Of a DNA stretch of 1,840 bases, positions 300 through 345 are shown one piece after another. The stretch is from Escherichia coli. GTDB lineage: Bacteria; Pseudomonadota; Gammaproteobacteria; Enterobacterales; Enterobacteriaceae. The position numbers and the translations under genes were made by a program. Numbering within the stretch: the stretch's first letter is position 1; the number at the start of each line of letters is the position of its first letter. A model generated the notes under the pieces. It had not been told where the DNA came from, did no database searches, and saw nothing but the letters and a program-made list of their open reading frames with translations. The stretch is from the NCBI RefSeq assembly GCF_003334255.1, contig NZ_QOWU01000146.1. One strand, 5' to 3'.

Positions 300-345
300 C
301 ACCGGGTTTTTTACCGCGTTAATGATTCGCGGGTTTATCCCGGTG
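300..345. promoter_or_regulatory. Nested inverted repeat in the intergenic region (outer 7-bp arms CACCGGG / CCCGGTG, inner 5-bp arms CCGCG / CGCGG)
   Basis: Outer arms at 300-306 and 339-345 are exact reverse complements. Inner arms at 314-318 and 328-332 pair around a 9-nt loop. T-runs at 307-312 and 334-336. Could be a weak terminator for the upstream gene, an RNA structure or a protein-binding site. Confidence 0.3.

Follow-up and report, generated by a model that had tools for sequence, protein, structure and literature searches.

Does a nested inverted repeat in the non-coding DNA downstream of the prophage lysis gene Rz mark a functional element and, if so, what kind of element? The window (that is, the whole stretch of 1,840 bases of Escherichia coli DNA that was analysed) contains such a repeat at positions 300–345, flagged in a sequence-only reading. 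The arms of the outer dyad, CACCGGG (300–306) and CCCGGTG (339–345), are 100% complementary over 7 bp with 32 nt between them, and the inner dyad (CCGCG/CGCGG) lies inside it, with T-rich internal loops, as that reading described. The distances to the flanking genes were also placed correctly (stop codon of Rz, 189–191; ATG of a lipoprotein gene, 503), and the ORF list contains the reported 32-codon frame opened by ATG 322 and ending at 420. As a bare pattern the nested dyad is not unusual: the window holds five 7-bp dyads with a span of up to 60 (5.0 expected from dinucleotide shuffles) and one nested 7+5 dyad (0.5 expected), and at least one nested dyad occurs in 31% of shuffles. It is nevertheless the context, a conserved non-coding block around the flagged site, that makes this site real. 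At about four times the length of the flagged 46 nt, the functional unit is a folded element of ~180 bases of which the hairpin is one corner (Table 1).

The window is the right end of a phage-21-like lambdoid prophage. Its Rz fragment matches phrog_13 ('Rz-like spanin', 1.5e-24), and the Rz stop codon is followed by a 311-nt non-coding stretch. Several small ORFs lie 3' of the lipoprotein gene, followed by a lambda-type cos site near 1560–1640 and a Nu1-type small terminase gene from 1786. Prophages of E. coli strains such as G1/2 match the window with 100% identity, and 420 complete E. coli genomes contain 80% or more of it; phage 21 matches positions 202–1592 at 98.6%.

Table 1. Features of the window, in order of position (element helices P1–P6 are predicted)
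Feature	Position	Strand	Basis or remark
Rz 3' end (i-spanin), with embedded Rz1 frame to 129	1–191	+	ORF list, PHROG, phage annotations
'Rz-downstream element', whole	199–374	+	~176 nt here; ~190 nt in the full-length form
P1, closing the 5' domain	GTATCGT 208–214 with ACGATGC 292–298	+	RNAalifold; 4/7 pairs with double changes
P2	220–224, 226, 228–230 with 274–276, 278, 280–284	+	RNAalifold consensus
P3, hairpin	CCC 246–248 / GGG 253–255	+	RNAalifold consensus
P4, hairpin	CTC 262–264 / GAG 270–272	+	RNAalifold consensus
P5a, possible	GGG 304–306 with CCC 339–341	+	Inner three pairs of the outer dyad
P5, hairpin (inner dyad)	CCGCG 314–318 / CGCGG 328–332, 9-nt loop	+	5/5 pairs with double changes
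P6, hairpin	339–344 with ACAGGA 360–365, 15-nt loop GCGATGGTGGAAGAA 345–359	+	6/6 pairs with double changes
Lipoprotein gene with TonB C-terminal domain	503–829	+	108 aa, lipobox LAVGC

Several further features of the window deserve mention in their own right. In phage 21 the homologue of the lipoprotein gene carries the annotation 'TonB C-terminal domain protein', and the label of its PHROG family (phrog_1267, 'Rz-like spanin') looks wrong. The cos region (1560–1745) is of the lambda type; its cosQ/cosN segment includes GGGTCCTTTCCGTCGATCCAACAGGTTACG followed directly by GGGCGGCGACCTCGCGGGTTTTCGCTATTTATGAAAATTTTCCGG. On the 3' side of this segment are three copies of CCGGACATG, one inverted (1642–1650) and two direct (1701–1709 and 1731–1739), which resemble the terminase-binding R sites of phage-21-type cosB. 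Two sites called 'terminator-like' by the terminator scan (1634–1650 and 1729–1748) are these CCGGACATG repeats. A leftward promoter-like site lies inside the lipoprotein gene (630–657, - strand; TTAACC-16-TATAAT, with an extended -10 TG and 10/12 matches); RNA started there would be antisense to the 5' end of the lipoprotein gene and would head towards the element. Finally, two leftward ORFs overlap at 952–1305 (-) and 1193–1444 (-). The first matches phrog_4843 (unknown function, 3e-46) over its C-terminal half, while the second starts with the signal-peptide-like MKIRNILAISLATSSFSCLA and has no PHROG match; the phage 21 annotation has small + strand ORFs opposite 952–1444, and gene calls here are unsettled.

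The initial clue to the conserved block was that many Stx phages match the window only as far as 322, and phage 21 only from 202. Comparison of neighbours revealed a common non-coding block (window ~199–374) in three different contexts. Sensitive blastn finds this block in 432 phage records, including those of lambda, HK629, 933W, 21 and Salmonella phage ES18, and a pattern scan added at least 120 IMG/VR loci. In E. coli K-12 it is part of prophage DLP12, flanked by borD and ybcV, at a place without an annotated RNA gene. When one genome per species was scanned, the block was found only in Escherichia species, one Raoultella prophage and a few contaminant-like short contigs; blastn with the divergent Raoultella copy revealed no new host genera among the phage records. 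The element in the window is matched over its full length by a covariance model, R1 (182 bits, E 1.7e-58). Searched against 80 loci selected only for encoding an Rz relative, R1 found the element in 19, among them two divergent members from IMG/VR phages, L180 and L168.

Neither Rfam 15 nor the annotations of phage 21, lambda-type phages and K-12 contain a description of the element, and it did not emerge from literature searches by gene names and sequence strings, which scarcely covered the older lambda literature. We could find no previous description, and an earlier mention is possible in that older literature. The kind of element to which it belongs—conserved structured RNA motifs in phage transcripts—is already known.

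The genomic position of the element is strikingly regular: it lies downstream of Rz, and in the same orientation, in 139 of 139 loci. Its start is at most 50 nt from the Rz stop codon in 37 of these (including this window and Raoultella), and in the remainder bor (on the opposite strand), rha or other inserted genes lie in between. Downstream, the neighbours vary among (i) cos/Nu1, (ii) three other small-terminase types, (iii) the TonB-C lipoprotein gene, and (iv) lambdap78 (on the opposite strand). Inserted genes are thus found on either side of the element, and inside it in none of the 139 loci. Given this fixed place among varying neighbours, the element marks the lysis/packaging junction. 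The notion that it is simply the 3'-UTR of Rz is weakened because bor separates the two in lambda-type phages. Late transcription in lambda is Q-antiterminated and runs on into the head genes; from gene order, we infer that the element lies inside the late operon, and that its + strand is the strand of the late (pR'-Q) transcript.

The element is also a place where mosaic homologies break. The phage 21 match sets in at its 5' edge (202), the megablast match to many Stx1 and Stx2 phages breaks off within the P5 loop (322), and in 933W and lambda the stretch between the region of 300–306 and P6 has been swapped wholesale for unrelated sequence, with both flanks kept. An exact module junction of this sort, with homologies that start or stop at its edges or in variable loops, could be a recombination 'linker', a block kept as a homology patch for mosaic exchange in which structure is incidental. 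A patch predicts conserved sequence, yet the pairing of P1, P5 and P6 survives complete sequence change (in Raoultella, L168 and L180); nor does a patch predict the bias towards G.U pairs on one strand that is described below. We consider the linker explanation improbable.

Could the block instead encode protein? Coding, including a C-terminal extension of Rz running through the block, was rejected: many variants contain stops, each frame is closed in at least one of the 69 sequences, and the variable columns (18/14/14 by codon position) lack codon periodicity. The frame at 322–420, doubted from the outset, is indeed not credible, as its ATG lies in the variable loop of P5 and is absent from most relatives. 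A 45-aa ORF at 348–485 has an equivalent annotated in phage 21 as CPT_21_72, with no PHROG match, and the frame started in the P6 loop is inconsistent, running for 6 to 45 codons or lacking a start depending on the variant. A chance dyad without function, or a peptide made from the 322–420 or the 348–485 frame, is accordingly the least probable of the explanations considered here; the frequency of nested dyads in shuffled windows and the CPT_21_72 call speak for it, and covariation of the inner dyad and the frame data above speak against it. The proposal that the site is an RNA-structure element rather than coding sequence is borne out by covariation and by the missing codon periodicity.

Other familiar classes were tried and rejected. 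ARAGORN found no tRNA-like gene. REP/BIME-type palindromes do not fit copies that, in 139 of 139 cases, lie downstream of Rz in lambdoid prophage or phage contexts; queried as a whole, the window has a median of two places per E. coli genome. A riboswitch or cis-regulatory leader is disfavoured by a downstream gene family that is inconsistent and by the lack of a following terminator. More specifically, the idea of a leader for the lipoprotein gene does not hold, since the same element precedes other genes in phages without the lipoprotein. Searching Rfam with cmscan at E<=10 gave only a chance mir-483 match elsewhere in the window, and cmscan at the gathering threshold of three copies from Sakai gave nothing in the element.

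The predicted structure was derived from an MAFFT alignment of 67 distinct sequences (A1), the RNAalifold consensus of which gives six + strand helices; a second alignment (A4) comprises 68 distinct sequences aligned to R1. P1 closes the 5' domain and becomes GUCCUGU/ACAGGGC in L180 and L168. P1 (7 bp) is separated by a 5/7-nt internal loop from P2 (9 bp with bulges), in which 98% of cells are paired, three pairs show double changes and C-G, U-G and U-A alternate at many places. Two small hairpins follow. The middle pair of P3 changes from C-G to G-C in L180 and L168 (CGC/GCG), and P4, for which support is weak, varies solely between C-G and U-G.

The 3' domain contains two further stems. P5 occurs as CUGUG/CGCAG, CAGC/GCUG, UCGCA/UGCGA (Raoultella) and CCCGC/GCGGG (L180 and L168). 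P6 occurs as CCGGU/ACCGG, CCUGU/ACAGG, CUCGAU/AUCGAG, AUGAA/UUCAU (Raoultella) and UCUGC/GCAGA (L180 and L168). Its purine-rich loop is 15 nt long in every variant and always ends in GAAGAA (consensus GCNNNGGURGAAGAA). P5a is a possible extension of P5: in full-length relatives GGG pairs with a CCC on the 5' side of a conserved UCAU motif, the middle G-C pair is replaced by C-G in L137, L168 and L180, which are the three most divergent members, and the helix is present in single-sequence folds of two full-length relatives (L018 and ES18). The unpaired segments that are conserved are (i) a pyrimidine-rich CUCCUCU between P3 and P4, (ii) the A-rich AUAAUCAAAAAC, and (iii) the GAAGAA of the P6 loop.

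Two further elaborations of the fold were rejected. A pseudoknot in which GGAAGAA of the P6 loop would pair with the pyrimidine run separating P3 from P4 shows no consistent complementarity or covariation by eye, and a boxB-like hairpin nested in the P6 loop is not kept in the C-type or ES18 variants. Separately, a perfect 7-bp inverted repeat, GGGATAA/TTATCCC, links 279–285 (in the 3' strand of P2) with 335–341 (the segment right after P5), and the replaced middle region of 933W retains UUUCCCGC, which is complementary to the same P2 strand. This pairing may represent an alternative conformation, but the most divergent members lack the complement.

Covariation was assessed against shuffled and slid controls. 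On A1, 98.2% of cells in the helices are paired and 10 pairs show double changes (3.8 +/- 1.2 in shuffles); the observed value was reached by 0 of 500 shuffles on any of five measures, and slid controls were far lower. A4 was fitted to the model, which biases it towards the modelled structure; here the paired cells amount to 97.8% (31–59% in slid controls). Double changes are seen in 19 of 33 pairs, compared with 6.5 +/- 1.7 in shuffles, none of which (0 of 500) attained the observed number; the double changes cover all five P5 pairs, all six P6 pairs and four of the seven P1 pairs. The set consists of closely related mosaics that fall into about ten types, and for this reason the independent compensatory events are far fewer than these cell counts suggest. 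Single-sequence folding of the 3' halves is no better than that of shuffles in several relatives (z -1.3 to +0.8).

The structure is also strand-specific. The RNAalifold consensus energy is -24.9 kcal/mol on the + strand and -8.7 kcal/mol on the - strand, and the paired columns contain 243 G.U cells against 20 A.C cells, an excess that fits + strand RNA, and not duplex DNA or - strand RNA. The element thereby shows two of the properties generally asked of a conserved structured RNA motif, namely compensatory pairing and strand specificity, and we conclude that a selected RNA structure very likely exists on the + strand.

Strand-specific hairpins, conserved loops and tolerated G.T pairs are typical of single-stranded DNA signals too, and covariation data do not separate RNA from ssDNA. 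The element might then serve in replication or packaging, as a priming or single-strand initiation signal or as a recombinase site. We know of no step in the lambdoid life cycle that needs an ssDNA signal here, minimal cos fragments without this region are still packaged, and the orientation of the element relative to late transcription is fixed across different packaging modules. We regard an ssDNA signal as very improbable, and retain + strand RNA as the form in which the structure most plausibly acts.

How do the two flagged dyads fare within this structure? When 298–347 is folded, both are included in the predicted fold on either strand (-22.6 kcal/mol, z -3.9 on the +; -23.3 kcal/mol, z -5.2, with 9+5 bp, on the -). 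Covariation among relatives separates them: the inner dyad is helix P5, well supported with all five pairs covarying, and the outer dyad is not conserved. The latter is broken at pair 303/342 in 19 of 68 relatives, A1 shows zero compensatory pairs for it, and its performance on A4 does not exceed that of shuffles. Where one group has changed G to U at 342, the matching change (C to A) is in the 3' arm of P6, and not at 303.

The origin of the outer dyad is apparent from a full-length relative, L012, which has GUUUAUCCCUCAUAGUCGCCUGUCCGGUG where the window has GUUUAUCCCGGUG. It follows that 16 nt between CC repeats have been deleted in the window, which joined the P5a CCC directly to GGUG in the 5' arm of P6 and so created the outer dyad. 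Its CACC (300–303)/GGTG (342–345) part is specific to the short variant, and the GGTG belongs to the P6 5' arm. Hence, three of the seven pairs may be a genuine helix, P5a, with the other four a by-product of the deletion. The window also combines a CCGGT-type 5' arm of P6 with an ACAGG-type 3' arm; because this 3' arm is ACAGGA, and not ACCGGA, P6 is weakened to four of six pairs, and the minimum-energy fold of the window adopts the outer dyad instead of P6. The copy in the window is, then, a derived short variant of phage-21 type.

A weak terminator had been the first function suggested for the site. This did not stand: a terminator scan of both strands of the window called five sites, none of them at 300–345, and the stem on the + strand is followed by GCGAUGGUGG, with no adjoining U-tract. 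The - strand requires closer attention, as the nested hairpin followed by CAUCGUUUUUAAUUAU could there form, in the short variants, a terminator or insulator that stops transcripts of leftward inserted genes before they enter the lysis genes in antisense. The - strand hairpin is the more stable of the two (energies above) and is followed by a U5 run, and the lambda-type element is flagged as terminator-like on the - strand at the homologous place, directly downstream of lambdap78, which ends beside it. Against this, (i) the U5 run in the window begins only 5–7 nt past the stem, and the scan leaves the site unflagged; (ii) the window has no - strand gene immediately upstream; (iii) in the full-length variants, which are the common ones, the loop closed by the outer stem is large and asymmetric; (iv) the - strand consensus fold is poor and the G.U/A.C excess favours the + strand; and (v) the leftward inserted gene in Sakai has its own canonical terminator outside the element. 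A - strand terminator is thus an explanation to which we give little credence.

Another possibility is that the element is a regulatory RNA that acts in trans—a sponge, a protein-titrating RNA or a base-pairing sRNA—released from the late transcript or expressed from its own promoter in the lysogen. The strong conservation of unpaired segments (CUCCUCU, AUAAUCAAAAAC and GAAGAA) would suit such an RNA, lambdoid prophages are rich in sRNAs (PMC4104026), and the window has a weak promoter-like TTGTTG-17-TATATT at 195–223. On the other hand, the element lacks a following intrinsic terminator on the + strand, its differing contexts share no conserved promoter, and no Rfam family matches it. The known prophage sRNAs AgvB/AsxR, STnc100 and Pas lie between pR' and the lysis genes (PMC4104026; 10.64898/2026.05.13.724894); identity with one of these was rejected, as cmscan places AgvB and STnc100 at the expected site in Sakai Sp9 and nothing in the element.

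Published Hfq-binding data initially appeared relevant, since Table S2 of Tree et al. lists two peaks, EcOnc11 and EcOnc12, that lie 75–122 nt after the Rz stop codon on the - strand. However, the coordinates of Tree et al. are ~128–140 nt lower than those of NC_002695.2 (calibrated on an AgvB-family match), and once corrected, neither peak falls within the element. EcOnc10, EcOnc11 and EcOnc12 then map just outside it, on the other strand, which argues against an RNA acting in trans. Corrected EcOnc12 covers the canonical - strand terminator of an inserted gene, ECs_1788, just 3' of the element. The orphan list of Tree et al. left out coding-strand peaks within 100 bp of a coding region; because of this exclusion, a + strand Hfq peak at the element could have been filtered out. 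Overall, action in trans seems unlikely to us.

As an observation apart from the element, the orphan peaks EcOnc10/11/12 (Tree et al. 2014) seem to correspond to the 3' end and intrinsic terminator of the leftward ECs_1788 and its paralogues. This terminator, ACTGCTGTGACTCCAACACGGCAGT followed by T7, lies immediately 3' of the element (L139 1851–1898, in Sakai Sp9; likewise in Sp10 and Sp12). The Hfq peak of Sp12 did not map cleanly.

Taken as a whole, the evidence is explained best, and on balance probably correctly, by a conserved structured RNA that acts in cis in the late transcript, at the junction between lysis and packaging genes. A cis-acting module was chosen because the element occupies the late-transcript strand where the cluster of lysis and accessory genes ends on its 3' side, and because it consists of a closed multi-helix domain and two hairpins. 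In the predicted arrangement, P1 closes a 5' domain holding P2–P4, and the 3' domain consists of P5 (perhaps extended by P5a) and P6, whose 6-bp stem presents the conserved 15-nt purine-rich loop. Acting in cis as RNA within the late polycistronic transcript, the element may serve in processing or stability, marking out and protecting the lysis-gene message on its 3' side; the site that a protein or nuclease would recognise is likely to be the P6 loop. This role, drawn from position and anatomy, is put forward tentatively. Something more than a passive barrier to exonucleases is suggested because the unpaired segments are strongly conserved; such conservation hints at protein binding, tertiary structure or overlapping DNA signals. 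A related formulation, which we hold to be a reasonable possibility if still short of an even chance, is a late-operon RNA domain of ~190 nt with a specific partner for the P6 loop and the conserved unpaired segments, controlling how the late transcript is handled at the lysis/packaging boundary, in processing or expression.

Promoter-like signals have also been noted at the element of HK629, which is of the lambda type. The annotation of HK629 has a - strand promoter in the 5' part of the element. In addition, the P6 loop of HK629 and the sequence that follows it (L004 1946–1974) form a + strand promoter-like CTGACA-17-TATGAT with 10/12 matches, which points antisense into lambdap78.

Few genomes have been studied as well as that of lambda. 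To our knowledge, the lambda late operon is usually described as one long transcript without internal RNA signals after tR'. If our interpretation is true, lambda, Shiga-toxin phages and the K-12 prophage DLP12 have in common a covarying RNA domain that is never interrupted by inserted genes. It would constitute an unrecognised layer of control or processing in late gene expression and, in Stx phages, would be co-transcribed with the toxin genes. Were it recognised by a partner, it would be more than a passive hairpin and would stand as a new class among the cis-regulatory RNAs of phages. The element is directly testable in lambda and K-12, and R1 is ready for use in annotating the lysis/packaging boundary of prophages.

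The element can be compared with four kinds of known system. Like intrinsic terminators, it contains a G+C-rich intergenic hairpin with T-runs nearby; unlike them, it has no U-tract abutting the stem on either strand, it has large internal loops, and it is unflagged by the terminator scan. With the prophage sRNAs AgvB, AsxR, STnc100, Esr41 and Pas it shares its non-coding nature and a conserved lambdoid position beside gene-insertion sites. Those sRNAs, however, are 50–200 nt long, have their own terminators and lie between pR' and the lysis genes (PMC4104026; 10.64898/2026.05.13.724894), whereas the element lies elsewhere. The put RNAs of HK022 offer a closer parallel as strand-specific structured RNAs of a lambdoid transcript whose stem-loops are kept by covariation, with action in cis being, for the element, our inference. 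They differ from it in size and place: put is ~70 nt with two stem-loops and lies just downstream of pL/pR, while the element is ~190 nt and lies in the late operon, after the lysis genes; the two have no sequence similarity, and no Rfam family matched the element.

The remaining comparison is with RNase III sites. The R-sites of T7, lambda sib and the RNase III sites of the N leader are irregular stems with internal loops that lie between blocks of phage genes, and cleavage by RNase III at such phage hairpins sets the stability of the upstream message. The element differs in three respects: (i) it has no sequence similarity to these sites; (ii) they are single hairpins of ~50–60 nt, while the element is multi-helical, ~190 nt long and has a branched 5' domain; and (iii) P1 and P2 together lack a clean coaxial helix of 20 bp. 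It shares with all of them the arrangement of a structured element located between gene blocks in a long polycistronic phage transcript, and we think that, in how it works, it would most resemble the RNase III processing hairpins.
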